64,000 bases of DNA from NCBI GenBank assembly GCA_018651085.1, contig JABIEQ010000002.1, positions 87,783 through 151,782 of the forward strand, read 5' to 3'. Shown one piece after another: positions 962 to 63,414 of the stretch. The translations under genes and the position numbers were made by a program. Every line of letters starts with the position of its first letter. Position 1 is the first letter of the stretch. Under the pieces are notes generated by a model. The model was not told the DNA's origin. It saw nothing but the letters and a program-made list of their open reading frames with translations, and made no database searches. This DNA is from Candidatus Magasanikiibacteriota bacterium. GTDB lineage: Bacteria > Patescibacteriota > Patescibacteriia > Magasanikbacterales > UBA922.

Positions 962-2469
<1,508 letters not shown>

Positions 2470-24162: not shown

Positions 24163-24186
24163 TTACTATAACTTTAGACGAATTAT

Positions 24187-24630
24187 ATGGCACTTACTCC
24201 ACAAACAATTCAAACGGCTAAAAATTCACAGCGAAAAAAGAAGCGTGTTGGTCGTGGAAATGGATCCGGAAGAGGAACATATTCTGGGCGTGGTCTTAAA
24301 GGACAACGTTCTCGTTCTGGCGGAAAAAAAGGAACAAAGTTTCTTGGATTTAAATCTTCTCTTAAGAAGATTCCAAAACTTCGTGGATTTAAGAGTCCAC
24401 ATGCTAAAAAGCAAACGGTTACTCTTAAGACACTTAATAGAATTGTATCTTCTGACGACGTGATTACTCCACAGTATCTCATGAAAAAAGGCGTTGTTTC
24501 TAACGTACGAGATGGAGTAAAGATCGTGGCAACTGGCGTGATTGATAAAAAAGTACAGATTAAAGGTTGTCTTGCGACAAAGCAAGCCTTAGCCTTAATT
24601 GAAAAAGCTGGTGGGTCACTGATTGTTTAG
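24187..24630 (+). CDS. rplO: 50S ribosomal protein L15
   Basis: GRGNGSGRGTYSGRG. Confidence 0.93.
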   Translation: MALTPQTIQTAKNSQRKKKRVGRGNGSGRGTYSGRGLKGQRSRSGGKKGTKFLGFKSSLKKIPKLRGFKSPHAKKQTVTLKTLNRIVSSDDVITPQYLMKKGVVSNVRDGVKIVATGVIDKKVQIKGCLATKQALALIEKAGGSLIV

Positions 24631-35139: not shown

Positions 35140-35900
35140 GTATGTTATCTGACAATTCTGTTGTTCTTATTATTCCTGTATATAATGGGGAAGAGTACTT
35201 GTTACGAACATGTGAAGAACTTGAAACGTACTTTGTAGAGCGACGTTATCTTAAAGAAATTATATTTGTTGACGACGGGAGTACTGATAATACCCATATT
35301 GCTTTAAAAAATAGTGTTCCTGCAGTATTAGCCTCTAGAGTGCGAGTACTCCATTATAAGAAAAATAGGGGAAAGGGATATGCAATTATGCATGCATTAT
35401 CTACGATTGACGATGCTGTTTCTTTTTTTGGCTTTACTGATGTTGAAATTCCATATGGATTGTCTTCTTTTGAAGAAGCCCTTTTTAAGCTTTTTGAATC
35501 AAAAGATATTGATGTTGTTATTGGAAATAGAAAACATAAAGATCAGACACAAGTGCAATATAGTTGGTATAGACAGTTTTGTACTCGTTTTTTTCGTTTA
35601 TTACTTCCTAAACCTATTCGTGCCATTTCAGATACACAAAGTGGGTTAAAGGTGTTTAAGGGAGATGTTGGACAAAAATTATTTTCATTAGTTCGAACAC
35701 ATCGTTGGGTGTTTGATATTGAGCTTCTGTTAGCTGTTGTTCGTGGTGGTTTTTCTTTTTATGAAATGCCCGTCTCTTTGAAGTCGTCGTGTCTCTCTCG
35801 TACTGGTGGTGTGTCTTTGTTTCGTCATGGTCCTCGAATCTTGTATGATATGATACGAATTTACTTATATGATAGAAAAAGCATATACAATTCTAAATAA
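35136..35900 (+). CDS. GT2-family glycosyltransferase (polyprenyl-phosphate sugar synthase-like, DPM1/GtrB type)
   Basis: VVLIIPVYNGEE...FVDDGSTDNT DXD-type GT2 N-terminus. Confidence 0.7.
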   Translation: MSMLSDNSVVLIIPVYNGEEYLLRTCEELETYFVERRYLKEIIFVDDGSTDNTHIALKNSVPAVLASRVRVLHYKKNRGKGYAIMHALSTIDDAVSFFGFTDVEIPYGLSSFEEALFKLFESKDIDVVIGNRKHKDQTQVQYSWYRQFCTRFFRLLLPKPIRAISDTQSGLKVFKGDVGQKLFSLVRTHRWVFDIELLLAVVRGGFSFYEMPVSLKSSCLSRTGGVSLFRHGPRILYDMIRIYLYDRKSIYNSK

Positions 35901-37542: not shown

Positions 37543-37545
37543 CGT

Positions 37546-38919
37546 ATGTCTTCATTTTTTTCTTTTATTACAAAACATAAAGTATATACAGTGCTTCTTT
37601 TTTTATGTTTTATCCTTGGAGTAAGTATCCGTATTCATGATATACGAACATACAATCCTTGGTGGGCAGATGATGGAGGAGCACACGTTGCATATGTTAA
37701 TACTCTATTTAACGATCATGTGCTTCCTGACCCTTCTATAAATTATTTAGCGTGGCATGAACCTGGATATTATGCACTTAGCGCGGTATGGAAAGGAGTC
37801 GGCACATTGTTTGGTATTGAAAGTTTGGCCTTCGTCACAGCACTACAACTTATATTTTTTATTTTTCTATTTATTCTTGTCTGGCTGTTTACCTATTGGT
37901 ATAGCAAAAAAAATATTTGGCTTTCGTTATATGCTACGGGGCTTATAAGTGTTCTTTTTTCTTATGTGAAGGTGTCAACGTATATTACGAATGAGTTTTT
38001 AGTGCAAGTGGGCATTATTTTTGGCATTGCGGCTTTTTTATACTTTCGTCTTTATACATCTTCATCATATCTTCGGGTGAGTGTGTGGGCATTGTTTGTT
38101 GCCGGTTTATTACTTATAAAGGTGAGTGCTGTTCTTTTATTGTTTGGGGCTTGTGTGTTGTGGGGTATTAGAGCGATATCTAAAAAACAATGGTATCCAT
38201 TTTTATACATTGTTCTTACTATTTTTATTATTGGTGTGATTAATAGTCCTTGGCTTATGTATAAGCATCATACCTTTGGGGAGTCATTTTCTATTAATAG
38301 TCATGAATCTGTTAAGCAATCTGTTTTTACAAGTGATGCCTGGGAGTATATGTTTTCTTTTAATGGGCATGTTTTTTCTGATAACCCTTATTGGTTCTCT
38401 TTACCGTATTCATTTTCGAGTATTATAATTTCTGACACGTTTAGTGATTATTATAATTTGTTTCATGATGCTGATCGTTTAGCATTGTTACCAGAAAAAG
38501 ATAAGACACTACTTCCTAATAATAGATACACTACAGCAGTGCTTACCCATGCAACGCTTCGAATGAATCAGATTGGCTTAGGGATATTTGTATTATGGGT
38601 CATTGGTCTTTTTGGAACCCTCTATACTTCTGTTCGTTCTTATTATTTCTCAAAAAAGATCGATTATCGAACACTTTTTGTGTTTATTATGATTGGATCT
38701 GGTTGGGGTGCACTTATCTATAATAATCTTCGTCTGCCTTATCTTGATCGAGGAGTACTTAAGATTCATTTTGTATTGTTTGTTATCTTTTTGATGAGTA
38801 TGGTATCGTCGGTATGGTGGTGGAACATGCTTAAGGTTTGGTATTTTCGTGCTTTAGTGTTGTTTTTACCACTTTTTGTCTATACCGTCATAGGATGGTC
38901 TATTCTTTTTATGAAATAG
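37546..38919 (+). CDS. GT-C-like polytopic membrane protein
   Basis: 457 aa; NPWWADDGGAH motif in the first loop; multi-TM. Confidence 0.4.
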   Translation: MSSFFSFITKHKVYTVLLFLCFILGVSIRIHDIRTYNPWWADDGGAHVAYVNTLFNDHVLPDPSINYLAWHEPGYYALSAVWKGVGTLFGIESLAFVTALQLIFFIFLFILVWLFTYWYSKKNIWLSLYATGLISVLFSYVKVSTYITNEFLVQVGIIFGIAAFLYFRLYTSSSYLRVSVWALFVAGLLLIKVSAVLLLFGACVLWGIRAISKKQWYPFLYIVLTIFIIGVINSPWLMYKHHTFGESFSINSHESVKQSVFTSDAWEYMFSFNGHVFSDNPYWFSLPYSFSSIIISDTFSDYYNLFHDADRLALLPEKDKTLLPNNRYTTAVLTHATLRMNQIGLGIFVLWVIGLFGTLYTSVRSYYFSKKIDYRTLFVFIMIGSGWGALIYNNLRLPYLDRGVLKIHFVLFVIFLMSMVSSVWWWNMLKVWYFRALVLFLPLFVYTVIGWSILFMK

Positions 38920-38925
38920 GGTTGT

Positions 38926-40368
38926 ATGCTTTTTAGTTCCCTTCCATTTTTATTTCTCTTTTTACCAATATTTTTATTGGCATATTATCTATTGCCAAGA
39001 TCTTTAAGAAATATAGTGGTCCTTGTCTTTAGTTACCTTTTTTATGCGTGGGGTGCGCCTATGTTTGTACTGGTTCTTTTTGGTACAACGATTATCGACT
39101 ATGTGCTTGGTCGATTGATTGCAAGATATGCTACAAAAGGGAATGTCTCTCGATTATTTCTATGGATTTCTTTATTATCTAATGTAGGGTTATTGGTGTA
39201 TTTTAAGTATGCTAATTTTTTTGTAGGAGAGTTTCAGGTGCTTCTTAGTTCATTTGGTTTTTCTTCGTCGTCTTTTGTTGCCATTGCTCTTCCTATTGGA
39301 ATATCCTTTTTTACTTTTCAAAAAATTAGCTATATTGTTGACGTCTATCGTGGAACGACACCGCCAGCAAAAAAATTTACAGACTTTGCGTTATATATTG
39401 CATTATTTCCACAACTTATTGCTGGGCCGATTGTACGGTATCATGATATAGCTTCTCAAATAATTTCTCGGACACATTCATTTAAAAAGTTTTTTTCTGG
39501 ATTGTGGCGTTTTTCTATAGGGCTTGGTAAAAAAGTACTGATTGCTAATGAGTTATCTCAAATTGTTGATACTGTATTTGCGCTTCCTGTTGAAAGTATC
39601 CCTTTTACCTATGCATGGATAGCTATTCTTGCGTATGCTTTTCAGATTTATTTTGATTTTTCTGGATACTCTGATATGGCTATTGGGCTTTCTCGTATGA
39701 TTGGTTTTGATATTTTAGAAAACTTTCGGTTGCCATATATTTCTCGAACGATTACAGAGTTTTGGCGTCGTTGGCATATTTCGTTGTCTCGTTTCATGAG
39801 AGAATATTTGTATATTCCCCTTGGAGGAAATCGTGTGAGTGCTGTACGTATGTATGGTAATTTGTGGATTGTTTTTTTACTTAGTGGATTTTGGCATGGA
39901 GCAGCATGGACATTTGTTATTTGGGGTGCGTGGCATGGATTTTTTCTTATGTGTGATAAAATGTTTTTTAAAGCCTATGCAAAAAAGATTTCTGGTCTTA
40001 TTACTGTTCCATTAACGTTTTTTATTGTAAGTATGGGATGGGTATTTTTTCGTTCTGAAACGTTATCATATGCGTGGGGATTTTTTAATGCCTTATTTAA
40101 TGTATTTTCTATTGGCACGGTGTTTTCTGGTATAGCTTGGGGAGAATTTATTACCCATAGAGGTCTGTTTGTACTTGTCATTGCTTTATTGATTAGTTTT
40201 ATCCCTGCAATTGTTCCTTTGTCTAAAAAAGTTATTCAATGGATTTCTTGTATTTCCCCCATAAAAAAAGTAGCATTTCAGTCTGTGTGTATTGTGTTTC
40301 TTTTATTGGTATCTGTAATGGCTATAACAAACGATGCGTTTCATCCGTTTATCTATTTTAGATTTTAG
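38926..40368 (+). CDS. MBOAT-family membrane O-acyltransferase (AlgI/DltB/PatA-like)
   Basis: FWRRWHISLSRFMREYLYIPLGGNR and FLLSGFWHGAAW contain the MBOAT conserved His. Confidence 0.8.
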   Translation: MLFSSLPFLFLFLPIFLLAYYLLPRSLRNIVVLVFSYLFYAWGAPMFVLVLFGTTIIDYVLGRLIARYATKGNVSRLFLWISLLSNVGLLVYFKYANFFVGEFQVLLSSFGFSSSSFVAIALPIGISFFTFQKISYIVDVYRGTTPPAKKFTDFALYIALFPQLIAGPIVRYHDIASQIISRTHSFKKFFSGLWRFSIGLGKKVLIANELSQIVDTVFALPVESIPFTYAWIAILAYAFQIYFDFSGYSDMAIGLSRMIGFDILENFRLPYISRTITEFWRRWHISLSRFMREYLYIPLGGNRVSAVRMYGNLWIVFLLSGFWHGAAWTFVIWGAWHGFFLMCDKMFFKAYAKKISGLITVPLTFFIVSMGWVFFRSETLSYAWGFFNALFNVFSIGTVFSGIAWGEFITHRGLFVLVIALLISFIPAIVPLSKKVIQWISCISPIKKVAFQSVCIVFLLLVSVMAITNDAFHPFIYFRF

Positions 40369-40369
40369 T

Positions 40370-41518
40370 ATGCGACGGTTTTTTATATTCACAACTATAT
40401 TCTTTTTCCTTTTTCTTTTTGCTCCCGTATTGCAAGGGGTGTCTCATGTATTTCAAGAGTCATCTGTATCTGGAGTGGAATATATTCCGACGCGACCTAC
40501 CTTAACGTTGTCTTCTTTTAAAACAGGTGATTTCCAACGAGATTTTTCTGATTGGTTTTCGTATGTGATGGGGTTCCGGGGAGCATTGATTCGATCTGAT
40601 AATCAATTAAATTTTTCTTTGTTTTCTGATATTTCTTCACAAGCTGACACAAAGATTGTTTTAGGAAAACAGGACTTTTTATATGAGCAAGGCTATATTG
40701 ATGGTATACAACATATTGATCCGATTGACCCCTTGATATTAAAAGAACGGGTTTTAGCACTTCGTACATTTCAGGATGAACTTAATAAACGAGAAATTCC
40801 TTTTCTTTTGTTAATTAGTCCAAGTAAAGCAAGTGTCTATCCGGAGTTTATTCCTGATCGTTTTTTGTATACTGAAGCTGTTCAGACAAAAAATACCTAT
40901 GAACAGCTTGTTCCGCTTTTAGATACATATGGTATTCAGTATATTGATGGTCATGATTTTTTTGTAAGACAAAAAGAAACACAGCCCCATACGTTATTTT
41001 CTGCTGGTGGAACGCATTGGAATTATTATGGAGCACTTCTTTTTTTACAACATGTGTTTGATGTTCTTGAGATACATATAGATAAAGATTTACCAGAGCT
41101 TATCTTAGACGATGTTGTTGTTGATACGGATTCATATGCTGCTGATAGAGATCTTTTGGAGCTTATAAATGTTTGGGATACTAGTCCACTTGATTCGTTA
41201 ACACCACATCCGTTGTATCATAGTGAGACAGAAGGGAAGTTTCTTGGTGATTTTCTCTTTGTTGGCGATAGTTTTAGTTGGATTCTTCTAGATATTCTTG
41301 ATGGAGCTCATATGTACAATTCTCGGGATTTCTATTATTATTTTAAGCAGCATGACACGTACCCAGAGAAAAGCTCGACTTCGATTAATCGAAGTAACAT
41401 TAATTGGGAAAAAGATGTCTTTTCTCGTGATGCGATTATTTTAGAGGTAAATGAGACGGCGCCACTTCCATTATGGTTTGGTTTTGTTGACGAAGCGCTT
41501 AATTATCTTGAACTGTAA
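40370..41518 (+). CDS. AlgJ/AlgX-like SGNH-type partner of MBOAT (extracytoplasmic O-acetyltransferase)
   Basis: N-terminal signal/TM; SAGGTHWNYYG motif; always adjacent to MBOAT in such systems. Confidence 0.5.
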   Translation: MRRFFIFTTIFFFLFLFAPVLQGVSHVFQESSVSGVEYIPTRPTLTLSSFKTGDFQRDFSDWFSYVMGFRGALIRSDNQLNFSLFSDISSQADTKIVLGKQDFLYEQGYIDGIQHIDPIDPLILKERVLALRTFQDELNKREIPFLLLISPSKASVYPEFIPDRFLYTEAVQTKNTYEQLVPLLDTYGIQYIDGHDFFVRQKETQPHTLFSAGGTHWNYYGALLFLQHVFDVLEIHIDKDLPELILDDVVVDTDSYAADRDLLELINVWDTSPLDSLTPHPLYHSETEGKFLGDFLFVGDSFSWILLDILDGAHMYNSRDFYYYFKQHDTYPEKSSTSINRSNINWEKDVFSRDAIILEVNETAPLPLWFGFVDEALNYLEL

Positions 41519-41527
41519 TGTTTACAT

Positions 41528-43246
41528 ATGTTTTTTGATTTTCTGACCTACAATGATATTCAGCACATTATTGTTATTAAATTATGTTTTTTTCTGTTTT
41601 TAGGTTTATGTCTCTGGGGAATATATAAGCGATGCCGCGGATGGTGGTTTGTTTTTTTAGTAAGTATTTTTTCTTCTTTTACTTACCTTGTGTTTGTGAA
41701 TAATCTTGGTCTTCCGCTCTGGGGGTTAAAAGGTGATGAGATTACAATTACTGCTATGTATGAAATGATGGCGCATGGTGCAATGTTCCGTGATTTTGCC
41801 TATCCTAACTTACCAGCCTTCTATCCGCCGCTTTGGTTTTCTTTTTTTGGCCTTATTGGAAAGATTTTTTCTTGGAATGGAATTTTTATTGGTAAATTTG
41901 CAGCTGCAAGTACATTTTTATTGTTACCAGCAGTGTTTTATGCGCTGCAGGTATATTTTTGGGGTAAACAAAAGAGTGCAAGTCTTCCTGGTCCTGTAGC
42001 CTGGTTGTTTTCTTCTTTAGCGCTTTTTGTTGTTTTTGATTGGCATGTGGTGGTCTCTAAACCTTATGAAGTTGTGAGTGCTTGTTTGATTGTTCTTTGG
42101 ACGTTATTTTTCTTGTATGATTTGTGGCATAAAAAGATATCGCTTAAACGAGGACTCGTGTACAGTGTTACAGGTGGACTTCTGTTTATGGTATTTTATT
42201 TTTGGTTTTTTCTTGTAGCACTTGGTATTACTTTTTTTCATTTGTTATATAAACGTGTTTCGTTACGTAAATACGTTTCTTTATGTATTGTTGGTTTAGG
42301 GATTTTGTTGGTATCAGCTCCTTTTTGGTATCCTTTATTTGAAAGTTATAGAGTGTTAGGATCAGAAAATTGGACGCTTGGGTATTTTCTTCTTTCTGGT
42401 GTTGCAACGCATGGTCCGTTATTAACGTATTCCATTTCTTCGTTGGTTCTTTTGTTTGGATTAGTCTCTCTTATAGTGTACAGGAAACATTTTGTGCCGC
42501 GTATTCTTTTGAGTTTATTTGTTGCACAGTATGTGTGGCATATTATGGGACTTGTCACGCTTTTAGTATTGTCGTATCCAATGCAAGAAGCAAAGGGAGT
42601 CTATTATTTTCATCGAGTGGTTCTTTTGTTGGGAGCAGCTTATGGGGTTGAGCGATTATGGATATACTGTAAAAAAAGATTTTCATATAAGCATAAAGTT
42701 TGGACGCGTTCTGTTGTCCTTATTGGTGTGTGTGTATTATCTACGCAACTTTTTTTCGGGTTTACTGTTGACGATGTGCATCTACAAGAACGACGTTCTT
42801 TATCTCGATCTCTTGATAGTGATATGCAGGATCTCATATCATTTTTAGATGATACGAATGACACCGTTCATCGAGTGACTCTTCATTCAGGTATTTCTGA
42901 AATATCTGCATTTTTGCCAACCAACACCTTTATCTATTATAATGCCCATAACAGTCATCCTGCTGCACGGTTTTCTGAACGGCTATCTGTTGTTGATGCG
43001 CTGACAAGAATGACTGATCCTGAATCTTTTTTTGAGTTGACGCAACATAATGGAATAACTCCTATTACGCGATTTATCTTTTTTGCAGAAGAAGAGAAGG
43101 GATATCCACTATACTTTCATGTTGATGATTTTCCACACACTGCAAAAGAAGTAACTATGTATATTTCTCCATCGGTATTTTCTCCAGATTATTTTTCTGA
43201 AGTGTATCGATCAAAACGTTTTGTTGTATATGAATCAAACAAGTAA
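41528..43246 (+). CDS. Polytopic GT-C-like membrane protein, paralog B
   Basis: 572 aa; WGLKGDEITITAMY, NLPAFYPPLWFS, GITFFHLLYKRVSLRKY aligned with paralog A. Confidence 0.5.
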   Translation: MFFDFLTYNDIQHIIVIKLCFFLFLGLCLWGIYKRCRGWWFVFLVSIFSSFTYLVFVNNLGLPLWGLKGDEITITAMYEMMAHGAMFRDFAYPNLPAFYPPLWFSFFGLIGKIFSWNGIFIGKFAAASTFLLLPAVFYALQVYFWGKQKSASLPGPVAWLFSSLALFVVFDWHVVVSKPYEVVSACLIVLWTLFFLYDLWHKKISLKRGLVYSVTGGLLFMVFYFWFFLVALGITFFHLLYKRVSLRKYVSLCIVGLGILLVSAPFWYPLFESYRVLGSENWTLGYFLLSGVATHGPLLTYSISSLVLLFGLVSLIVYRKHFVPRILLSLFVAQYVWHIMGLVTLLVLSYPMQEAKGVYYFHRVVLLLGAAYGVERLWIYCKKRFSYKHKVWTRSVVLIGVCVLSTQLFFGFTVDDVHLQERRSLSRSLDSDMQDLISFLDDTNDTVHRVTLHSGISEISAFLPTNTFIYYNAHNSHPAARFSERLSVVDALTRMTDPESFFELTQHNGITPITRFIFFAEEEKGYPLYFHVDDFPHTAKEVTMYISPSVFSPDYFSEVYRSKRFVVYESNK

Positions 43247-46646: not shown

Positions 46647-46730
46647 TAGGCGAGGAGGGACTTGAACCCTCATGATGTCGCCATCGCTGGATTTTGAATC
46701 CAGTGCGTCTACCAATTCCGCCACCCGCCC
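46647..46730 (-). tRNA. tRNA-Leu (CAA), long variable arm
   Basis: reverse complement GGGCGGGTGGCGGAATTGGTAGACGC...CTGGATTCAAAATCCAG...GAGGGTTCAAGTCCCTCCTCGCCT; anticodon loop TTCAAAA. Confidence 0.8.
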
Positions 46731-46806: not shown

Positions 46807-47577
46807 ATGTCAAAAATCATTGCTGTTGTGAATCAGAAAGGTGGTGTTGGAAAAACAACAACCACTATGAACTTAGCTGCATATCTTGCTGAACTCGGTA
46901 AATTTGTGCTTGTTGTTGACATGGATCCTCAAGGAAATGCGACGAGCGGTCTTGGTATTTCTCGAGCTGACCTTGCTCATGGTATATATGAAGCACTAGC
47001 GAAGCAGAAACGTATTCATGATGTTGTTATTAATACGAATCATGAAGGGTTGCGATTGGTTCCTGCAACACAAGATTTAGCGGGAGCAAACATTGAGCTT
47101 GTTGACGTGGAACGACGTGAGTTTCAGCTTGGTGACTTGTTAGAAGAACTTCGTCATGCATATGATTATATTTTAATTGATTGTCCACCGTCATTAGGGT
47201 TGTTAACGATTAATAGTTTAGTAGCAGCTGATGAGATTCTTATCCCTGTGCAAGCTGAATATTATGCGCTTGAGGGACTTGGGCAATTATTACAAACCAT
47301 TGGTCTTGTAAAAGAGCACATAAAGCCTGAAATTTCAGTGCTTGGCGCTGTGCTTACCATGTTTGATAAGCGAACAAAATTAGCAGGTGACGTTATGGAA
47401 GAATTGTATAAGTATTTTCCTGATAATATTTTTAGAAGTGTTATTCCTCGAAATGTTCGGTTGGCTGAAGCACCTAGTTTTGGGAAATCTATTTTTCATT
47501 ATGATCCAAAAGGTAAAGGGGCTCGTGCGTATGAGCGTCTTGCTCGCGAAATTTTAGAAAAACATAGCGTTATTTAA
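46807..47577 (+). CDS. parA: Chromosome partitioning ATPase ParA/Soj
   Basis: KIIAVVNQKGGVGKTTT deviant Walker A. Confidence 0.93.
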   Translation: MSKIIAVVNQKGGVGKTTTTMNLAAYLAELGKFVLVVDMDPQGNATSGLGISRADLAHGIYEALAKQKRIHDVVINTNHEGLRLVPATQDLAGANIELVDVERREFQLGDLLEELRHAYDYILIDCPPSLGLLTINSLVAADEILIPVQAEYYALEGLGQLLQTIGLVKEHIKPEISVLGAVLTMFDKRTKLAGDVMEELYKYFPDNIFRSVIPRNVRLAEAPSFGKSIFHYDPKGKGARAYERLAREILEKHSVI

Positions 47578-48506: not shown

Positions 48507-48593
48507 CGGAGAGACAGGGATTCGAACCCTGGGAAGGCGTTAACCCTCAACGGTTTTCAAGACCGCCGCCTTAAACCGCTCAGCCATCTCTCC
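48507..48593 (-). tRNA. tRNA-Ser (TGA), long variable arm
   Basis: reverse complement GGAGAGATGGCTGAGCGG...CGGTCTTGAAAACCG...GGGTTCGAATCCCTGTCTCTCCG. Confidence 0.8.
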
Positions 48594-48614: not shown

Positions 48615-48702
48615 CGGAAGGGGCGGGATTCGAACCCGCGGTCCGGGAGTACCGGACAACACGTTAGCAGTGTGCCGCTTTCGACCACTCAGCCACCCTT
48701 CC
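48615..48702 (-). tRNA. tRNA-Ser (GCT), long variable arm (one mismatch at the base of the anticodon stem)
   Basis: reverse complement GGAAGGGTGGCTGAGTGGTCGAAAGC...CTGCTAA...GCGGGTTCGAATCCCGCCCCTTCCG. Confidence 0.65.
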
Positions 48703-49220: not shown

Positions 49221-49299
49221 CCTTTTTAGTTAACACACCTTATATATGAGGTGTGTTTTTTTATATCCCTTTTTATCTTGTGTTATACTATGTATTAGT

Positions 49300-50487
49300 A
49301 TGAAAGATATATTGCGTCATTTTTTTGTTCCTCATAAGGAAAATGGGTATCATCCGCACGTGCTTCATCCTAAACGAGCCGTGTTTTATAGTATGGTTTT
49401 TTGCGCTATAAAAGGAGTGCTTGTTTTGTGTGCATTACTTTTACCTACGACAGCTTTTTTATCTGATGATTTTTTTAAAGGAGAAGAGGAGATTTTATAT
49501 ACTCTTACGAATGAACTTCGTGCTTCTCAAGGGGTAGCAACTCTTGGTGTTGATGAACTTTTAGCTACGTCGGCTATGCTTAAGGCTGAAGATATGGCTA
49601 CAAAAGGATATTTTAGTCATGTTGGTCCAGATGGAAGGGGATTGGCATCTTTTTTATCAGAAGCAGAATATGATTATGGTGTTGCTGGGGAAAATTTAGG
49701 AATGGGTTTTTATGATGCTCTGTCGTTATTTCGTGCGTGGGTTAATAGTGAAACACATTATGCAAATTTGATTGATGGTTCTTTTGACGAGGTCGGTTTT
49801 GCTATTCGTTCTGGTGTGTTTGAAGGAAAACAGGTGACGTATGTTGTGCAGCATTTTGGGACGACTGCTGACGCTTTACCTGCTAAGATTGCTGCTGAAC
49901 GTATTCATAGTGTTGTGGTTGCTCCACAAGAGAACGGAGTTTCTTCGTCGTATCCTTTTGTTTGGAACGCAACGGACACCATTGTGAAAGATACTTCATT
50001 TATTTCTCAAGAGTCTGTTGAAGGAGGACTTCTTCTTCGTGCTCATGTATCTTTTCTTTCTCCAATTCACTCAGCATATGTAAAAGCGCATTCTACTATT
50101 ATTCCTTTATCTTTTGACGAAGACCTTCAAATGTATACAGGTGCTTATATGGTGGATCTACCTCCTGAAGGTACTTTTTCTGGTGTTGTTCCTGCAACAC
50201 TTCATGTTGTTGATGCCTCTCAAAATGTTCGCGTATATCCACTTTTGTGGAAAGAAGTTTCTCCAGGTGTTATTTCCTCAGTTCAACAGTATTTTTTAGC
50301 AAAACGTGATGGGTCTCCACTTGCTCCGTTATTTTTGGTTTCTCAGTGGATCTATGGTCTTTGTACATTATTTTTCATTATCATCCTTGGAGTGAAGGTG
50401 TTTGTGCATATTCGTCATCAGCATTATCATGTCATTGGGCAGACGCTTGGCCTCCTTTTTCTGCTGGGAACGTTCTTTTTTATATAA
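49300..50487 (+). CDS. Secreted CAP/SCP/PR1-like domain protein with a C-terminal TM anchor
   Basis: GYFSHVGPDG...ETHYANLIDGSFDEVGFAI CAP-like blocks; the start is placed at the MKDILRHFF Met downstream of the terminator. Confidence 0.5.
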   Translation: MKDILRHFFVPHKENGYHPHVLHPKRAVFYSMVFCAIKGVLVLCALLLPTTAFLSDDFFKGEEEILYTLTNELRASQGVATLGVDELLATSAMLKAEDMATKGYFSHVGPDGRGLASFLSEAEYDYGVAGENLGMGFYDALSLFRAWVNSETHYANLIDGSFDEVGFAIRSGVFEGKQVTYVVQHFGTTADALPAKIAAERIHSVVVAPQENGVSSSYPFVWNATDTIVKDTSFISQESVEGGLLLRAHVSFLSPIHSAYVKAHSTIIPLSFDEDLQMYTGAYMVDLPPEGTFSGVVPATLHVVDASQNVRVYPLLWKEVSPGVISSVQQYFLAKRDGSPLAPLFLVSQWIYGLCTLFFIIILGVKVFVHIRHQHYHVIGQTLGLLFLLGTFFFI

Positions 50488-50589
50488 ATAGTAATAAAAG
50501 TAGCTTTTTTAAACAAACCCTTTATTTTTAGGGGTTTATTTTGGTATTTTTTGACTTTTTTCCTTGCATTGTTATAGTACCTTTAGAAT

Positions 50590-51507
50590 GTGTATAACAA
50601 TATATATATGGATGTATTTCAGCAGGGGCTCTATTTTGGTAGTTATTTCGTTTTCCCTTTTCTTTTATGGTGTATATATCGCTATACCGTAAAGCGATCA
50701 CGCATTGTATTGTTTCTCTTTGTCCTTTCTCTTTTATTTGTTGATATGCGTTTTATTGAGCCTAATATTGTGATTACTCGAGAAGAGTCGTTTTCTTTTA
50801 GTGCTCATGGTGAAAATGAAGGAACTGAAGTACGTATGGCTTTATTATCCGATATCCATCTTGGGGTATATAGAGGAAAGCGTTTTTTTGCAAAAACTAT
50901 TGACACTGTCATTGCTTCGAATCCTGATATTGTGCTTATTCCTGGAGATTTTATTTATTATATATCTTCTGAAGAACTCGTTATTTTATTTGAAGAATTT
51001 TCTAGAATTGATGTTCCTATATATGCCGTCACAGGAAATCATGATGCTGGGTATCCCGGACCATATACGAGTTCTGAGATACGACGTGCTATTAGTGCTT
51101 CTGGTGTGATATTTTTAGATAACGATATTACCTCTATTGATGTAAAAGGAAAGAAGCTTCGTTTAGTAGGTTTAAGTGATCTTTGGGAAGGGGATACAAA
51201 TTACAGTGTGTTAAAAAATATTCGTCCAGAAGATAATGCTATTGTTATTGCTCATAATCCTGACACTGTGTATGACTTTCCGTCATATGATGCTGATTTG
51301 GTAGTATCAGGTCATACGCATGGGGGGCAGATTCGGATTCCTTTTTTGTATAAACGTGCTATTCCTTCATCATATGGTTTTGATAAAGGGTGGTATGATG
51401 TTGAATCATTGAAAGTGTATGTTACGAGTGGTCTTGGTATTATTGGTCTTCCACTTCGTTTTTTAAATCTTCCTGAGGTTGTGCTTATATCTTCTCAAGT
51501 GTATTAG
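50590..51507 (+). CDS. Membrane-anchored calcineurin-like metallophosphoesterase
   Basis: SDIHLG, GDF, GNHD, GHTHGG motif series. Confidence 0.8.
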   Translation: MYNNIYMDVFQQGLYFGSYFVFPFLLWCIYRYTVKRSRIVLFLFVLSLLFVDMRFIEPNIVITREESFSFSAHGENEGTEVRMALLSDIHLGVYRGKRFFAKTIDTVIASNPDIVLIPGDFIYYISSEELVILFEEFSRIDVPIYAVTGNHDAGYPGPYTSSEIRRAISASGVIFLDNDITSIDVKGKKLRLVGLSDLWEGDTNYSVLKNIRPEDNAIVIAHNPDTVYDFPSYDADLVVSGHTHGGQIRIPFLYKRAIPSSYGFDKGWYDVESLKVYVTSGLGIIGLPLRFLNLPEVVLISSQVY

Positions 51508-51531
51508 CAGTGTATGATTATATGCAAACGT

Positions 51532-54500
51532 ATGGTGGGGATTCGTTTGACTGGAGTTATTGTACTATGTGCTCTTCTTTTTCCTATTCAAGTATTTGCG
51601 TCTTTAGAATTTAAGACGTCTATTGATACTGACTTAATTACTCTTCCTGAAGATGTTCATGAGTATAATCGTTTGTTTGAAGAATATCTTTCTCAAGAAA
51701 AGAATAGTGAGTTGTCTTTTCTTAAAGTTAAAGAGCGTTCTTTAATAGATCCTATCGTTCAAAAACACTTTCGTGATGGTCTTTTAATAAATGATGTCAA
51801 AGAACAGATTGATGCTGCTTCTTTATTTACTGATTTATCTGTACAGCAACCAGTTTTTCCCATATATAAGCATGCATTACCATTATCTCCTTTTTTATCA
51901 CCATCCGTTTCATCGTTGTCTTCGTTAGATCGATATTTATTTTCTCCTTTAATAAAAAATGCAGGGGGTTCTTCTTTTGATAATGCTTCTTTATCTTTTT
52001 TTACTATTCCATCTGTCCATGCTGATGATGATTTATTGATACCATATTATACAGATATTGAGACTTCTCCAGTTGATTTTCTTCTTTATTATATTTCTCA
52101 GTATCAAAATAGCGATGGGAGTGTTGGTAATTCTCGACAATATGAGTTTACTGTTCGTTTAGCTATGATATTAAGTCAGTTTCAAAAGACTGATAATGAT
52201 CAATATACACTCATGCTTGGTTATCTTCGTGATACTGAACCAGTGACTGTGAGGGAAAAAGCATTACAAGTACGCTTTTTGATGCATATTGGTGACCCTT
52301 ATGAAGATATTCTTCATGAAATTACGTCACTACAAAAAAATGATGGGGGTTTTCCTCTTTCTCCTTCACTTGATGTGAGTGATATTGAAACGACTCTTGA
52401 GGTTGCGCTTTCTTTTTTAGCAGCTGACCATGGACTTGATGATTCTTTGCCTTTGGCACTTTATTATGTTGTTTCTTCGATTCCTGAAGATGGTGGTATG
52501 TTTTATGGGCGTGATGCATTGTATAGTGATCCAAATTATCCACTTATAAATAAGACCGTACAAATGTTACAACCATTTGAAGCGTTTACTCTTCGAATTA
52601 ATAATGAAGATGTTGTGATATCTGAAATTATTGATTCTTTGTTTTCTTTTGTTGTAGGTGGGTATGAAGAAAATAGTGGGTTTTCTTCTCATGGTTTTTT
52701 TAATGATGTTAGTACGCTTTATACATTGCATGTGTATGGTGAGTATAATGATTTATATACATTTCTTTTTGATACAAGTAAATCTTATCAAAAGGTAGAT
52801 GGATCAGTGGGTGCTTCTTTTGAAGAAATTTTAGTATCTCTTCAGGGCTTTTCTCAACCTGATCTTGTTGTATCTGATATGCAATTTGTGGGGGATAGGA
52901 TAAGTGGGGAAGATGCGTCTATGCGTATAACTATTCAAAACAATGGATACGTCCGTCCAAAAGATGGGATACTTCATGTGTTTGTTGATAATGTTGACAT
53001 TGGACTTCAGCTTTCTTTATCTCAATCTGATGTAGAGGCTCTTTCTTTTAGAAATAGTCATACTATTGTTTTTGATATTCCTTTTTCATATACGAAACGA
53101 TTTTTAGGGAACACATCTTTTCAAGTGTATCTTGAGTCTAAAAATGATATGACACCAATTGATAATTGGTTATCGAGGTCTTTTTCTTTTGCTTCATCAA
53201 TTGATAGTTCTCCATCTTTCCCACTATATTATTCAGCGTTTGCTTCATCATTTCAGGGTGGTCCTTCTTTGACTTTTTCTTTATATGATCGAGAAGATCA
53301 AAACCGGGTGGGGTATGTATTAGGAGTACGTGAACTTGGTGAAGAAACTTGGTCTACATATGTAGTAAATGTTGAACAATATATTGTTGGAGGAATATTT
53401 TCTGAAGGGACTACCTATGAAGTCATTGTAGGAGTATTTGGAGATAATCAAGAAGTATTATTTTTTCCCGAAGAAGAGATTACAACTATTCGTATGAGTG
53501 CTACGCCTGAAATATATGAAGGGAGTATAAAAGGGGATGTTCGTGTTGATAATCTATTGTCTTCCCCTCAAATATTTGTGCAGGGTGGATCATCTATATA
53601 TGTAGAAAATGGTGAATTTGAGGCAAGGGTGCCAAATGGTTCTATTATGGCTTGGGTACAGGAAGATCAATATGATGCGGTGCGCTATCGATTTAATGTA
53701 TCTTCTGCTGAAATTGTTGACGATGCTCGACTGTTTTCTCACTTATCGTTTGATGATGAGTCGCCTACCATAACAAGTTTTGGGTTATCTCCTTTTTTTG
53801 ATGGAGTTCTTTTTAATCAGGGTATTGTAACTATGACGGTGCAAGCTCAAGATACTTTGGCACTTGATTCTGTTGATATTTTTTATTTTGATCCGGATGA
53901 ATCACTATGGTTGTATGTAACAACGGCTTCTTTTTTAGGAGAGCAATCACGTATTGATTGGTTTGTCCCACATACTTTTTTAGGAGAAGGGTATCAGTTT
54001 CGTGCAATTGCTCGGGATTTTAGAGGGAATGTATCTATTCCATTTGATGTGGATGTCACATCTATTCGTGATGGAACTCCACCTTCTTTTTCATTTAGTA
54101 CTCCTGTTAGTAGTACTGTGTGGCAGTTGGGGGAAGAGCATTCTATTTCTTGGGAAACACAAGCTATTAATAATGTTAATGATGTTACTATTGATCTTTT
54201 GTATGGAGAATACGTTGAGCCTATTTATCGGTCTCGTGAAAATACAGGGGAGTATCTTTGGTCTATTCCGTATGACATGTCTTACGCATCTGACGATGTG
54301 TATCTTCGTGTGTCAGGAGAAGATAATGAAAATTATCGTCTTGGTGTTCAATATACAACATCTTCTTTTCATATTGTTGATCCATCTTCTTTTGTAGATG
54401 CCCCTTGGGGAAATCCTGTCGTTGTAACAGATACTCTTCGTGATGAGTTTTATGGTGGACGATATTATGACGTTGTAAGTGCTTATGACGATGCTGGTAT

Positions 54501-56919
54501 TCTTCATGTAGTGTATCAATTTATTCGTGACGAGTTAGGTGATACACGTATACTTACGCAACAATTACATTATCTTACTTTTTTTGAAAATACATGGTCT
54601 TCCCCTCAGATTATATTTGAAGAACAAATTGAAACAGATAATTCTCTTACAGGGTATCGATCTATTAGTGATATGCAAATGCTTGTGGGCACTGACGCTT
54701 TTCCACGATTGCTTTGGCGGCAGGGACTTAGTCAAGGTTGTGAGTCTTTGAACACTCAAGATATCTTTTTTATGGAATATGTAGGTGACACTTGGTCTGA
54801 TGTTATGAATGTGTCTTCTAATGAAACTGATTCTCGTCAACCAGATATGACTATTAGTGATATGGGTGTGGTTACATTTATTTGGTCTGATGGTCCGGCT
54901 TGGACAGAGACCTGTGATTTTATTGGTGAACAAGGGTTGTCTTATGTGTCTTATGATAATGGTGAATGGGGAAGTATGACATCTCTTTTTGAAGGAACAT
55001 ATCCAAGTAAACCGCAACTTGTTTCATTAGGTGGAAATGATATTGATGTTGTGTATAGAAGTGGGGATGTTGGGGAACTTGCTCATGTTCGTTTTTCTAA
55101 TAATGCATGGTCTCTTCCAGATTATTTTATGAGTGCACGATCTGAAACACCGCAACTTGTTTTAGGAGAAAATGGAACACTTCATTATGTATTTCGTGAA
55201 TTTCATTTTCGTACTCAACCTGTACGTAGTCGTATTGTATATGCTTATTTTGATGGGGATCATTGGTCAACGGAAGAAGTATCGCCCATTGTAGACGGGT
55301 ATGAGGTGTTTTATCCGTCTATTATGCTTGATGGTACAAATAGTCCATATATTATGTATGAACGTCGTAATACTGAGAATCAGCGGCGTGATGGGGTGTT
55401 TTTGAGCCAATCTCCGGGTGGAGAATGGCTTACACCTATATCTATACAAAGGGACTCTCAATTTCTTACCTCTGGTACATTAAATACAAATATAAGCTCT
55501 CTTGGCCAGGTGTCTGCTTTATGGCTGGGGTCATATCAATTTCATCCAGAGATATTTTATAATCAGGCAGATGTTTCTCGTGGAGATTCCACCATAAGAT
55601 CATTTGGGGTGTCAGAAAATGTTATATTTACTAATAGTAGCGCAACACAAACTATACAATTTGTATTAGATGATGCTCGAGATGTCGATGAAGTTCGTTT
55701 TTTGTGTAATCATCGATATCATCGTGAACAAGATAATCCTGCTTGTGGGTATATACAGATTGTACGTGATCCTGATACTTATGAATATACTCCTCAATTG
55801 TATACGGCAGGTTTTGGAAATGATGTCATGGATTTAAAGATGGATGATTTTTCTTATACGTATCATCATGATGGTTCTCTTTCTTTTTCTATTCCTTTTA
55901 CACTTTCTCCAGCATTTGGTGAATATACTAATAATATTTTTTCTGTTATTTGGTATGAACATGAAAATGAGTATGTTCGTGGATGGTTTGCAAGCCCTGA
56001 GCGGTTTGATACGTATCTTGACGAAAATGTTCTTCCTCCACCTGTTGTTGGTGAGATTTCTTTTTTAAAGGATACTGTTTTAGCAAATGATAGTGATATA
56101 CAGTTTAGTACTGTTACATTTCAATATGGTGAGCCCGTTGATGAGTTTCGATTGTATATAAATCATGACTGGTACGCTGATAACGATAATCCACGTGGGG
56201 GGCTTTTCTTGTGGCGACGTGAGGATGATGTATTTATGGAATTAGGTGGAAATAATTATGGAGGAGATATCGTTACTCTTTTACCTGAGTTATCTTCTTC
56301 TTTTTTGGATGAAGATACACATGAACGTACTATCGTATTTGCTTGGAGTTTGTCTCCTACGTACCCACAAACAGAAGGGCATACTCTTTCTTATCTCTGG
56401 CAAGATCTGGATATTGCATATTCTTCTGGGTGGAAACATTTATTAGATGAATCGTTTCGTGTTGTATCTGATGATGATTATATTCCACCAGCTCTTCTTG
56501 ACTCAGTACAAGTATTGAAAGAATTTGTAGCACGAAATAATATAGATACTCAAGAAGTTACGTTTGTATTTTCTTCTGGTGAACAGGTGGACGATGTTCG
56601 ATTATATATTAATCATGATTGGTATCCTGATAACGATAATCCACGTGGTGGCCTTTTTATTTGGCGACGAGAAAGTAATAGTTTTTCTGAGCTTGGTGGA
56701 AATAATTATGGATCTCAATTGGTTACTCTTTTGCCTGATTCTCACGTTGTCATTGATGAAGAAAGTGGGGAAGTGCGTGTTACATTTATTTGGTCTATTT
56801 TATCTGATTATCCTATTTCTTTTAATAATACATTATCTTATTTATGGCAGGATAGTGATATATCCTATTCTTCAAATTGGAAACATGTAGAGGGCCAACA
56901 TTTTTCCATTATTGATTAG
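51532..56919 (+). CDS. Giant secreted/surface protein (~1796 aa): N-terminal signal peptide, region with repeated DG(S/G) alpha/alpha-toroid-like motifs, and three C-terminal tandem ~150-aa repeats
   Basis: signal MVGIRLTGVIVLCALLFPIQVFAS; repeats NHDWY(A/P)DNDNPRGGLF(L/I)WRRE...TLSYLWQD(L/S)DI(A/S)YSS(G/N)WKH at about 56070-56500 and 56520-56919, plus a diverged copy at about 55620-56050. Confidence 0.6.
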   Translation: MVGIRLTGVIVLCALLFPIQVFASLEFKTSIDTDLITLPEDVHEYNRLFEEYLSQEKNSELSFLKVKERSLIDPIVQKHFRDGLLINDVKEQIDAASLFTDLSVQQPVFPIYKHALPLSPFLSPSVSSLSSLDRYLFSPLIKNAGGSSFDNASLSFFTIPSVHADDDLLIPYYTDIETSPVDFLLYYISQYQNSDGSVGNSRQYEFTVRLAMILSQFQKTDNDQYTLMLGYLRDTEPVTVREKALQVRFLMHIGDPYEDILHEITSLQKNDGGFPLSPSLDVSDIETTLEVALSFLAADHGLDDSLPLALYYVVSSIPEDGGMFYGRDALYSDPNYPLINKTVQMLQPFEAFTLRINNEDVVISEIIDSLFSFVVGGYEENSGFSSHGFFNDVSTLYTLHVYGEYNDLYTFLFDTSKSYQKVDGSVGASFEEILVSLQGFSQPDLVVSDMQFVGDRISGEDASMRITIQNNGYVRPKDGILHVFVDNVDIGLQLSLSQSDVEALSFRNSHTIVFDIPFSYTKRFLGNTSFQVYLESKNDMTPIDNWLSRSFSFASSIDSSPSFPLYYSAFASSFQGGPSLTFSLYDREDQNRVGYVLGVRELGEETWSTYVVNVEQYIVGGIFSEGTTYEVIVGVFGDNQEVLFFPEEEITTIRMSATPEIYEGSIKGDVRVDNLLSSPQIFVQGGSSIYVENGEFEARVPNGSIMAWVQEDQYDAVRYRFNVSSAEIVDDARLFSHLSFDDESPTITSFGLSPFFDGVLFNQGIVTMTVQAQDTLALDSVDIFYFDPDESLWLYVTTASFLGEQSRIDWFVPHTFLGEGYQFRAIARDFRGNVSIPFDVDVTSIRDGTPPSFSFSTPVSSTVWQLGEEHSISWETQAINNVNDVTIDLLYGEYVEPIYRSRENTGEYLWSIPYDMSYASDDVYLRVSGEDNENYRLGVQYTTSSFHIVDPSSFVDAPWGNPVVVTDTLRDEFYGGRYYDVVSAYDDAGILHVVYQFIRDELGDTRILTQQLHYLTFFENTWSSPQIIFEEQIETDNSLTGYRSISDMQMLVGTDAFPRLLWRQGLSQGCESLNTQDIFFMEYVGDTWSDVMNVSSNETDSRQPDMTISDMGVVTFIWSDGPAWTETCDFIGEQGLSYVSYDNGEWGSMTSLFEGTYPSKPQLVSLGGNDIDVVYRSGDVGELAHVRFSNNAWSLPDYFMSARSETPQLVLGENGTLHYVFREFHFRTQPVRSRIVYAYFDGDHWSTEEVSPIVDGYEVFYPSIMLDGTNSPYIMYERRNTENQRRDGVFLSQSPGGEWLTPISIQRDSQFLTSGTLNTNISSLGQVSALWLGSYQFHPEIFYNQADVSRGDSTIRSFGVSENVIFTNSSATQTIQFVLDDARDVDEVRFLCNHRYHREQDNPACGYIQIVRDPDTYEYTPQLYTAGFGNDVMDLKMDDFSYTYHHDGSLSFSIPFTLSPAFGEYTNNIFSVIWYEHENEYVRGWFASPERFDTYLDENVLPPPVVGEISFLKDTVLANDSDIQFSTVTFQYGEPVDEFRLYINHDWYADNDNPRGGLFLWRREDDVFMELGGNNYGGDIVTLLPELSSSFLDEDTHERTIVFAWSLSPTYPQTEGHTLSYLWQDLDIAYSSGWKHLLDESFRVVSDDDYIPPALLDSVQVLKEFVARNNIDTQEVTFVFSSGEQVDDVRLYINHDWYPDNDNPRGGLFIWRRESNSFSELGGNNYGSQLVTLLPDSHVVIDEESGEVRVTFIWSILSDYPISFNNTLSYLWQDSDISYSSNWKHVEGQHFSIID

Positions 56920-63010: not shown

Positions 63011-63020
63011 TTTTTTATTG

Positions 63021-63414
63021 TGGAGATGCTGGGATTTGAACCCAGGTCTAGAGCGGGCTACCTACACACTCTACATACATAGCCGTTTTGTTGTTTCATA
63101 CTGTGATAAAAAAGCGGCAAAATCACGCAGTACTAGCCTAGGAGAATTTCAGATATACCATGCAGACACACTATATACCCTACACTCAATGTTTTGACAC
63201 CGCGGGACCATTATTGAGTATCATGGACGCGATGGCTGTGCTTATTTAGGCAACAACAGATGCGAGTGTTGGCATAGCAAATGCGTTAGCAAGTGTAGCC
63301 TTTACTCGACTGATAACGTTTGCACGTAATCGGTTGCCCCTTGATTTACGAGGGGAGACACCCTCGGTATGCATATATAGATAACGGATCCGTCTATCGA
63401 GTCCTGTCATCCCC
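63021..63414 (-). ncRNA. ssrA: tmRNA (transfer-messenger RNA)
   Basis: 5' GGGGAUGACAGGACUCGAUAGACGG; 3' GACCUGGGUUCAAAUCCCAGCAUCUCCA, a tRNA-like T-arm with encoded CCA; acceptor pairing GGGGAUG/CAUCUCC; candidate tag reading frame GCA AAC ... GUU GUU GCC UAA giving AN...ASVVA; immediately downstream of smpB. Confidence 0.8.

Follow-up and report, generated by a model that had tools for sequence, protein, structure and literature searches.

A Sec-exported multi-domain protein of Candidatus Magasanikbacteria ends in three copies of a rare Ig-like module

Introduction

How CPR bacteria (Patescibacteria) recognise other cells and stay attached to them is, to our knowledge, poorly understood; the leading candidates for this role are their large exported proteins. 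Secreted enzymes and toxins can carry terminal arrays of wall-binding repeats such as SLH, CWB2 and LysM, and in the Rhs-type toxin WapA the wall-binding region is at the N-terminus. S-layer proteins are usually highly expressed and of a single architecture.

Giant surface proteins have already been described as a feature of CPR epibionts (PMC8080830), where their proposed role is host recognition and attachment (PMC8080830; PMC11665869). The protein analysed here resembles such giants, for example those of Vampirococcus lugosii (PMC8080830), in its CPR host, its Sec export and its size, which lies inside their range of 1392-4163 aa. It also shares their mosaic construction from propeller, integrin/FG-GAP-like and Ig/fibronectin-like domains, and in both cases the attachment role is inferred.

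Results

The window is the whole 64,000-nucleotide stretch of DNA analysed. All three ORFs that an earlier note had proposed in this part of it (a CAP-domain protein, a membrane metallophosphoesterase and a giant ORF) were confirmed. They are arranged as follows, the hairpins and the promoter being pattern matches only, from a consensus scan:

49232-49257, terminator-like hairpin overlapping the upstream ATG of the CAP gene
49300..50487, + strand, CAP-domain (YkwD-like) membrane protein (Pfam CAP)
50515-50537, + strand, terminator-like hairpin between the CAP and phosphoesterase genes
50551-50578, + strand, sigma-70-like promoter, TTGACT-16-TATAGT with TG
50590..51507, + strand, membrane metallophosphoesterase, YaeI-like (Pfam Metallophos)
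51514..56919 (stop codon included), + strand, uninterrupted large ORF for a secreted multi-domain protein of 1801 aa

The CAP ORF has its first ATG at 49246, but the second candidate, M19 at 49300, is the likelier start of the gene. Its product matched Pfam CAP (PF00188) over aa 87-204 with 59.3 bits against a cut-off of 21.1 (E 8.6e-16), and full-length coverage of the profile (3-117/117) places it in the CAP superfamily. At 79.7 bits it fell below the 171-bit cut-off of the NCBIfam YkwD model TIGR02909; judged by its sequence, it is YkwD-related and lies outside the curated subfamily. Hydrophobic segments occur at aa 48-66 and aa 362-413. The phosphoesterase, which has an N-terminal TM segment at aa 33-57, scored 62.2 bits against Pfam Metallophos (PF00149; cut-off 21.5, E 1.1e-16), and its translation contains the full set of metal-binding motifs DxH, GD, GNHD, H and GHxH (as LSDIHLG, PGDFIY, TGNHD, AHNPD and SGHTHGG). 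HMM score and motifs together identify a calcineurin-like metallophosphoesterase. It matched the NCBIfam YaeI-like model at E 7e-37 and remained under the equivalog cut-offs (YaeI, 127 vs 188 bits; LpxG, 101 vs 350).

The earlier note had suggested that these two proteins belong to the same secreted toolkit as the giant protein, and this idea was not sustained. The hairpin and promoter element together span 50515..50578, between the CAP and phosphoesterase genes, and neither gene was found as a neighbour at the loci where relatives of the large protein are encoded (0/5). Because both are missing beside all 5 related genes, we conclude that there is no shared toolkit. The CAP gene is an independent neighbour. 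The phosphoesterase gene, whose stop codon is 6 nt from the ATG of the large ORF, probably shares a transcript with the large gene and has no evolutionary link to it.

The large ORF, a gene of 5.4 kb, encodes 1801 aa from its first ATG or 1795 aa from M7, close to the 1796 aa estimated earlier. Export is indicated by a Sec-type signal peptide with a putative cleavage site read from the sequence. A hydropathy scan found one hydrophobic segment only, at the N-terminus (aa 7-25), and no further TM segments. The protein is very acidic (D+E 267 vs K+R 103). An ORF of this size might reflect an error of assembly or a pseudogene made by fusing several genes; the earlier note had named frameshifts or stop codons as the sign of the latter. 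Nothing was found in favour of either, and there are no internal stops. An independent ENA assembly differs from the window by 8 SNPs, with 0 gaps across 17.5 kb, and encodes the same protein except for 2 residues. Intact cluster members were found in NCBI, JGI and ENA data on at least 16 contigs, the longest of 863 kb, and the distant homologues P0014 and P0010 repeat the N-to-C domain order. Because the ORF is intact in independent Candidatus Magasanikbacteria assemblies, it is not a pseudogene fusion, and we give the artefact reading practically no weight. The annotation of the cluster members, as hypothetical proteins of Candidatus Magasanikbacteria (Patescibacteria/CPR), agrees with the CPR-like host proposed from the sequence.

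From N- to C-terminus, the protein comprises a signal peptide, a Ser/Pro/Leu-rich linker, a toroid, CARDB/Ig-like spacers, a predicted beta-propeller and three copies of a module:

51514..51600, + strand, aa 1-29, Sec-type signal peptide (h-region aa 7-25, then VFA, cut before S)
51991..52848, + strand, aa ~160-445, alpha/alpha-toroid-like domain with squalene-cyclase/prenyltransferase-type repeats
52855..54357, + strand, aa 448-948, beta-sandwich spacer region, made up of the next three entries
aa 448-545, CARDB-like domain (PF07705, E 2.1e-4, 21.9 bits, just under the 22.7-bit cut-off)
aa 546-862, Ig-like stretch without a family match
aa 863-948, Kre9/KNH-like Ig (Kre9_KNH, E 5e-3)
54361..55569, + strand, aa 950-1352, predicted beta-propeller with six W-S-x-P-type blade motifs
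55570..56007, + strand, aa 1353-1498, module copy 1, divergent, with a Cys pair (C1398, C1411); family HMM domain E 6e-32
56038..56466, + strand, aa 1509-1651, module copy 2
56485..56916, + strand, aa 1658-1801, module copy 3, reaching the C-terminus; family HMM E 4e-40

The first third had been likened to prenyltransferase, terpene-cyclase and macroglobulin repeats, and only the cyclase/prenyltransferase part of this comparison stood. A profile of three sequences (A3), compared with PDB sequences, aligned three repeats with the SQHop_cyclase_C proteins 7xr7/8zg1 at E 1.4e-6. The repeated QW/prenyltransferase-type helical hairpins are thus seen at profile level, and a relationship to squalene-cyclase/prenyltransferase-type alpha/alpha-toroid repeats is supported; a single-sequence Pfam scan was negative, with gathering thresholds not reached. 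The toroid region, which is conserved with P0014 and P0010, has QxxDG(S/G) at aa 198, 274 and 426 and PEDGG at about aa 325. An alpha-2-macroglobulin or complement thioester domain is not supported: the toroid lacks a CGEQ-type thioester motif, the protein has a total of only 6 Cys (aa 4, 19, 1076, 1134, 1398 and 1411; 0 in the toroid) and A2M Pfam matches were not obtained. The conserved catalytic Asp-rich motif (DxDD) is also absent from the toroid, and the sole DDD (aa 171-173) is not kept in P0014 or P0010. The toroid is most likely a non-catalytic squalene-cyclase-like domain.

The CARDB score of homologue P0014 (23.2 bits) exceeds the cut-off, and the spacer region is colinear with the relatives at loci L002-L006. 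These proteins have in common a core of aa ~150-1200, at 27-31% identity and E 1e-63 to 1e-105. The module is present in only some of them, and the C-terminal payload varies among family members. Toroid, spacers and propeller are the conserved core by which these large CPR-type proteins form a small family.

The structure modelled for residues 950-1352 is a lectin/polysaccharide-lyase-like beta-propeller, closed and composed of 4-stranded blades, probably seven in number (pLDDT 77.8, from a shallow 3-sequence alignment). The blade motifs, G-x-x-W-S-x-P, are unlike the canonical Asp-boxes (SxDxGxTW) of BNR/sialidase propellers, and a Pfam scan gave a faint BNR_4 match only (E 0.14). Hydrolases and lyases are among the structural neighbours, and both propeller and toroid could be catalytic instead of binding. 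On this alternative the large protein would be an extracellular enzyme, with a polysaccharide-lyase/glycosidase-like propeller or a catalytic toroid, that degrades or remodels a glycan (in the cell wall or matrix of a host, for example), with Ig-like domains and modules as carbohydrate-binding or spacer accessories. However, non-catalytic lectins and integrins are equally good structural neighbours, identity to the enzymes is 8-14% with no sequence-level match to solved structures, the toroid lacks a conserved DxDD motif, and catalytic residues are not assignable. We regard an enzymatic role as unlikely.

The three tandem C-terminal repeats of ~150 aa announced by the earlier note were recovered by BLASTP between copies and as a DNA repeat period of 450 nt. 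Copies 2 and 3 are 52-54% identical in amino acid sequence (BLASTP E 3e-51), and copy 1 is 22-24% identical to copies 2 and 3 (E 1e-9). A 22-nt identical DNA stretch, from which a recent duplication of copies 2 and 3 had been deduced, is indeed present (56177-56198 = 56627-56648), and it codes for the most conserved peptide, DNDNPRG. The deduction itself fails. The duplication cannot be called recent because the DNA of the two copies is just 63% identical overall (72% across the best 204 nt), and the 22-nt run is no sign of recency, since in a simulation at 70% identity a run of at least 22 nt arose by chance in about 4.5% of cases.

The three window copies were turned into a family HMM, which was searched exhaustively against 1.84 billion representatives. 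At E<=1e-3 it recovered 44 representative proteins, of which 32 reached E<=1e-10, with about 112 module instances across 43 proteins, including the 3 in the large protein. No Pfam or NCBIfam model matched the whole module, in line with its being called novel. Its length is ~135 aa and its signature is IN-x6-10-N-x3-RGYF.W, YGN..V.LL, N.vsy.W. AlphaFold modelled it confidently as an Ig-like beta-sandwich (pLDDT 95), and no PDB relatives specific to it were found (Foldseek TM at most 0.46). The module is a real, rare, uncurated Ig-like domain family. Its first strands weakly resemble intimin/invasin Big-type domains (intimin, E 1.5e-4; Invasin_D3, E 2.6e-4, on P0007). Assignment to Big_1 or Invasin_D3 was rejected, as the alignment was limited to the first ~40 residues and no full-length match was obtained.

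Of 39 complete module proteins, 36 have a signal-type N-terminus. The tandem arrays, each of 1-6 copies, were terminal in 41/42, either straight after the signal peptide (25) or at the extreme C-terminus (16). All of the domains that accompany the module are extracellular: S8 subtilase with P-domain, RHS/YD toxins, SASA esterase with fn3, FG-GAP/ASPIC, RCC1 and Temptin/MopE. Some carriers are diderm Myxococcota.

A look for sortase-type anchoring came out negative. The motif [LIV]Px[TSA]G occurs nowhere in the large protein, and its hydrophilic C-terminus ends ...WKHVEGQHFSIID, without a hydrophobic tail. SLH, LysM, CWB and S-layer models of Pfam and NCBIfam gave no match at E<=1 (E<=10 for segments). 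These results bear on a further alternative, in which the large protein is a structural part of the envelope, an S-layer-like or fibrous coat with no specific ligand, and the repeats add length. Its strong acidity, its size relative to a small genome, its many beta-sandwich domains and the absence of an enzymatic signature would suit such a role, and the fibrous surfaces of the CPR bacterium Vampirococcus have been ascribed to large proteins (PMC8080830). Apart from the missing SLH and S-layer family matches, this family swaps its C-terminal payloads, unlike the usual single architecture of S-layer proteins. Because the module is also found on toxins and proteases, a targeting or anchoring role is favoured over lattice building, and we hold a purely structural role to be improbable.

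Discussion

The large protein is, with a somewhat better than even chance in our estimate, a Sec-exported binding protein of the cell surface or extracellular space of a candidate-phylum bacterium with tiny cells (Candidatus Magasanikbacteria). In this model, toroid and propeller would act as ligand-binding heads for a glycan or lipid, and the terminal triple Ig-like array would make attachment multivalent. The array may tether the protein non-covalently to an envelope polymer of the producer; we propose this because its position is that of wall-binding repeats in secreted enzymes and toxins. Alternatively, the array may bind the surface of a partner cell. Retention at the surface, with no recognised anchor (LPXTG, C-terminal TM segment, SLH/LysM/CWB), is assumed, and Ig-like arrays can also be inert spacers.

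A bolder proposal, which we put forward as a long shot, is that the module is a cell-envelope recognition or tethering domain common to CPR giants (Magasanikbacteria, Peregrinibacteria), to RHS/YD polymorphic toxins and to subtilases secreted by predatory Myxococcota. The toroid-CARDB-propeller core would then head a CPR-specific attachment system, with a conserved ~1400-aa transglutaminase-like partner in other lineages. If true, epibiotic, predatory and antagonistic bacteria would have in common one device for sticking to a bacterial surface.

Most likely, the large protein represents an ordinary kind of gene plus one small new domain family, so that its novelty is modest, and the analysis brings no new mechanism to light. 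Nonetheless, one "hypothetical protein" has been parsed into a domain architecture, and a few large CPR-type proteins have been found to share a toroid-spacer-propeller core. With about 44 sequence clusters and terminal tandem arrays on proteases, esterases and RHS toxins, the module family can be made into a Pfam-style model, and the domains are now delimited as constructs for binding and structural experiments.

In the literature searched, we found no description of an architecture that combines a squalene-cyclase-like toroid, CARDB, a propeller and this module. The Vampirococcus lugosii giants (PMC8080830) share no demonstrated homology with the large protein, and the Magasanikbacteria lineage may be epibiotic or free-living. 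With the SQHop_cyclase_C and Prenyltrans toroids (7xr7, 8zg1, 1gsz) the large protein shares QxxDG(G/S)(F/W)G-type repeats; unlike squalene-hopene cyclase and prenyltransferase, its toroid is exported and has neither a conserved DxDD nor DDxxD, and unlike the macroglobulin TED it has no thioester. The closest structural comparators of the predicted propeller are the seven-bladed lectins PLL, BP39L and CV39L, the glycoside hydrolase BACINT_00347 (5mum) and an L-rhamnose-alpha-1,4-D-glucuronate lyase (7esk), from which our shallow-alignment model differs in its low identity (8-14%) and in binding or catalytic residues that are not identifiable. The module is set apart from intimin/invasin (Big_1, Invasin_D3) and V-set Ig domains by its length (~135 vs about 95 aa), its own signature and a Foldseek TM of <=0.46. 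Neither in sequence nor in fold is it related to SLH, CWB2 or LysM, and its diderm carriers among the Myxococcota are a further departure from that analogy. Its putative binding of a wall polymer is nevertheless modelled on these arrays, which module arrays resemble in adjoining the signal peptide or the C-terminus of proteases, esterases and RHS toxins.

An intact gene encodes a large secreted protein

The region holds three ORFs, all on the same strand:

49246-50487, plus strand: CAP-domain protein, 413 aa if started at the first ATG
50590-51507, plus strand: calcineurin-like metallophosphoesterase, 305 aa (Pfam E 1.1e-16)
51514-56919, plus strand: the large protein, 1801 aa from the first ATG or 1795 aa from M7

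No stop codon interrupts the large ORF. The only hydrophobic segment of its product, aa 7-25, is of signal type and is followed by VFA|S, which bears out the secretion proposed for this protein in the earlier note. Beyond it we found no further TM segment and no LPXTG-like motif, and the C-terminus is hydrophilic; sortase, S-layer or LysM anchoring was rejected, as neither motifs nor matches were present. The protein is strongly acidic (267 D+E vs 103 K+R).

An independent ENA contig (L001) spans 17.5 kb of the window with 8 mismatches and 0 indels; the large protein it encodes departs from the window version at two residues. Five of the 8 differences fall within 26 nt (47123-47148) inside a ParA gene, a cluster that reflects local variability at this site or else a misassembly in the window or in L001. 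Full-length proteins in the 90% cluster of the large protein come from 16 or more contigs, the longest 863 kb, and carry the GenBank name 'hypothetical protein [Candidatus Magasanikbacteria bacterium]' (MBT3418756.1 among them). This naming places them in the Patescibacteria group, Parcubacteria group, and supports the CPR origin assumed earlier. Because the ORF is intact in L001 and in the cluster members, we rejected a pseudogene fusion, the reading that frameshifts or stop codons would have favored. The large gene is real, and had been correctly observed.

The C-terminal repeats belong to a rare extracellular domain family

Segment BLAST resolved three tandem units at the C-terminal end of the large protein; whole-protein self-BLAST returned the trivial match only, and the repeats are visible only with segment queries:

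aa 1353-1498: module copy 1, 22-24% identical to copy 2 or 3 (E 1e-9)
aa 1509-1651: module copy 2, 52-54% identical to copy 3 (E 3e-51)
aa 1658-1801: module copy 3, the pair of copy 2

In the DNA the repeat period is 450 nt. A 22-nt identity between copies 2 and 3, previously taken as a sign of recent duplication, was confirmed (56177-56198 equals 56627-56648), but it codes for the module's most conserved peptide, DNDNPRG, and DNA identity between the copies is just 63% overall, reaching 72% in the best 204 nt. Of simulations at 70% identity, ~4.5% contained a run of at least 22 nt by chance. The duplication giving copies 2 and 3 is later than the split from copy 1, yet not recent.

The module proved to be uncatalogued, as the earlier note had supposed: Pfam and NCBIfam gave no match to it, even at E<=10, and no Pfam family covers it in the 23 carriers scanned. 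An exhaustive search of 1.84 billion representative proteins with a profile of the three window copies returned 44 matches at E<=1e-3, of which 32 reached E<=1e-10 and 13 reached E<=1e-30. Local HMM iteration located 112 module instances across 43 proteins, each with between 1 and 6 copies in tandem, and eliminated one match (P0042) as a coiled-coil false positive. The consensus reads F.sftv.k..v.AdG.d.Qt..Lt..vd.vR..IN-x(6-10)-ng...rGYF.wt....Gf.E.g...yGN..V.Ll...tf.Frwt..p.yG....N.vsy.W....W. and 24 of 69 instances have two Cys residues that covary as a pair. The AlphaFold2 model of copy 2, built from the 69-instance alignment (A2), is all-beta and of very high confidence (pLDDT 95, pTM 0.89), and Foldseek found no PDB match to it at E<=1e-3 (TM <=0.46). 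Resemblance to intimin/invasin Big-type domains is confined to the first strands (profile E 1.5e-4; Invasin_D3 E 2.6e-4 in the carrier P0007).

Signal-type hydrophobic N-termini are present in 36 of 39 complete carriers, and 41 of 42 module arrays are terminal, 25 lying straight after the signal peptide and 16 at the extreme C-terminus. Partner domains include S8 subtilase with a P-domain, teneurin/RHS YD-shell toxins with NHL repeats, SASA esterase with fn3, FG-GAP/ASPIC, RCC1, Temptin_C/MopE and Laminin_G-like domains, and carriers with names belong to Peregrinibacteria (CPR) and Myxococcota. On the strength of the family search, the model, the terminal arrays and the partner domains, we conclude that the module is a real, rare and uncurated family of extracellular Ig-like domains.

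Six carriers (P0021, P0023, P0029, P0035, P0040, P0041) also share an unannotated C-terminal domain that ends NDFIWSDRH...HS...DWTNGYLV(S/Q)GL and has no Pfam model.

A conserved core carries exchangeable C-termini

For the first third of the protein, alpha/alpha-toroid repeats of prenyltransferase, terpene-cyclase or macroglobulin-like type had been suggested. A profile built from the window protein and two distant homologues, P0014 and P0010, supports a toroid at the level of sequence: aa ~160-445 match 'SQHop_cyclase_C domain-containing' structures (E 1.4e-6) in an alignment covering three successive repeats, with squalene-hopene cyclase itself matched more weakly. The sole Asp-rich stretch is not conserved in the relatives compared, and a catalytic terpene cyclase was rejected for want of such a conserved motif. 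The macroglobulin-like reading fails because the toroid has zero Cys from which to form a thioester. Downstream, aa 448-545 are CARDB-like (21.9 bits vs a cut-off of 22.7 bits) and aa 863-948 are Kre9/KNH-like Ig (Pfam). Neither the whole protein nor a profile of the modelled propeller (aa 950-1352) gave any match among PDB sequences.

A word-indexed search with the full protein returned only the protein itself and one partial relative (P0002), missing P0010, P0014 and others found by exhaustive HMM search. Queries with the module alignment and with only the propeller found nothing by this type of search, although P0001, which is the window protein apart from two residues, is in the searched collection. 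One-genome-per-species contigs yielded no relatives of the large protein or of the CAP protein; at that sensitivity they hold nothing closely related to the lineage.

Over aa ~150-920 the protein aligns at 28-30% identity with P0010 (E 6e-64; 1780 aa) and P0014 (E 6.5e-97; 2596 aa), whose C-termini carry 3 or 5 module copies. A metagenome scan with this cassette recovered more relatives at three loci (L004-L006), with 27% identity across ~1040-1070 residues, extending into the propeller; the module is absent from these proteins. Because they share the core without the module, the conserved unit is the toroid and spacers, with or without the propeller, and the C-terminal payloads are exchangeable.

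At four metagenomic loci a conserved secreted protein of ~1400-1550 aa lies upstream of the large-protein relative, with 1-2 small ORFs between:

L002, 2341-7011: upstream partner, with weak Transglut_core and EndoU matches
L004, 3337-7470: upstream partner
L005, 1-4155: upstream partner
L006, 896-5509: upstream partner

These partners are 31-35% identical to one another over 900-1370 residues, and tblastn found no homologue in the 64-kb window.

The neighboring genes do not form a conserved toolkit

The CAP domain is full-length (aa 87-204, Pfam E 8.6e-16) and YkwD-like, yet under that subfamily's NCBIfam cut-off; hydrophobic segments lie ahead of it and at the C-terminus. Since a hairpin resembling a terminator (49232-49257) extends over the first ATG, M19 at 49300, the start chosen in the earlier note, is the likelier one. 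The phosphoesterase has an N-terminal TM segment and every metal-binding motif, and its best NCBIfam match is YaeI (E 7e-37, below the equivalog cut-off). Its stop codon lies 6 nt ahead of the large ORF, a gap that makes co-transcription of these two genes plausible. Pattern matches place a hairpin and a promoter-like site between the CAP and phosphoesterase genes, splitting CAP off, and at five related loci no neighboring gene encodes a CAP protein or a metallophosphoesterase. A secreted toolkit shared by the three genes, or a conserved operon of them, was rejected on these grounds.

Genome context

Other features of the window are as follows:

962-2468, plus strand: complete 16S rRNA gene; a 23S gene does not follow, and the next ORFs are on the opposite strand
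4137-6967, minus strand: CotH-kinase-domain protein (558 aa) adjoining a CYTH-domain protein (385 aa)
7913-10591, plus strand: 892-aa protein whose sole Pfam match is a fibronectin type III domain
23581-24630, plus strand: ribosomal S5 then L15, with a 24-nt gap and no L30 gene between
33427-43246, plus strand: envelope-glycan genes for two AftA_N-like GT-C membrane proteins, a GT2 glycosyltransferase, two unassigned ~460-560-aa proteins, an MBOAT acyltransferase and an AlgX-like SGNH protein
46647-46730, 48507-48593 and 48615-48702, minus strand: tRNA genes, among plus-strand genes
63018-63414, minus strand: tmRNA gene (119.5 bits)

Nearly all genes lie on one strand. This bias, the unlinked rRNA operon (16S without 23S) and the S5-L15 junction without L30 are consistent with a CPR genome; L30 is not known from CPR. 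GC content in the window is lowest (30-32%), with strong skew, in the stretch that holds the CotH-CYTH pair. The 892-aa protein may be a second surface protein, and the 33427-43246 run looks like a cluster for surface-polysaccharide synthesis and O-acylation.

Possible role of the large protein

The analysis establishes an export signal, the domain composition, an intact gene and modules of a family with a terminal, extracellular context. The large protein would be exposed at the cell surface or released, and would bind ligands, likely a glycan at the propeller and a glycan or lipid at the toroid. The triple terminal Ig-like array may provide multivalent attachment. Wall-binding repeats hold the same terminal position in secreted proteases and Rhs-type toxins, and because the array occupies that position we rated three roles for it. 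It possibly tethers the protein to the producer's own envelope, a reading we hold tentatively; binding to a partner or host surface is only slightly less probable, and a passive stalk is unlikely. The polysaccharide cluster could make a ligand for wall-binding modules.

For CPR epibionts, the accepted candidates for recognizing a host are large exported proteins (PMC8080830; PMC11665869). At 1801 aa, the protein is far from the Omnitrophota 'giant gene' class. It is probably a large mosaic CPR surface protein, a kind already known, to which it adds one small new Ig-like domain family that is worth curating.
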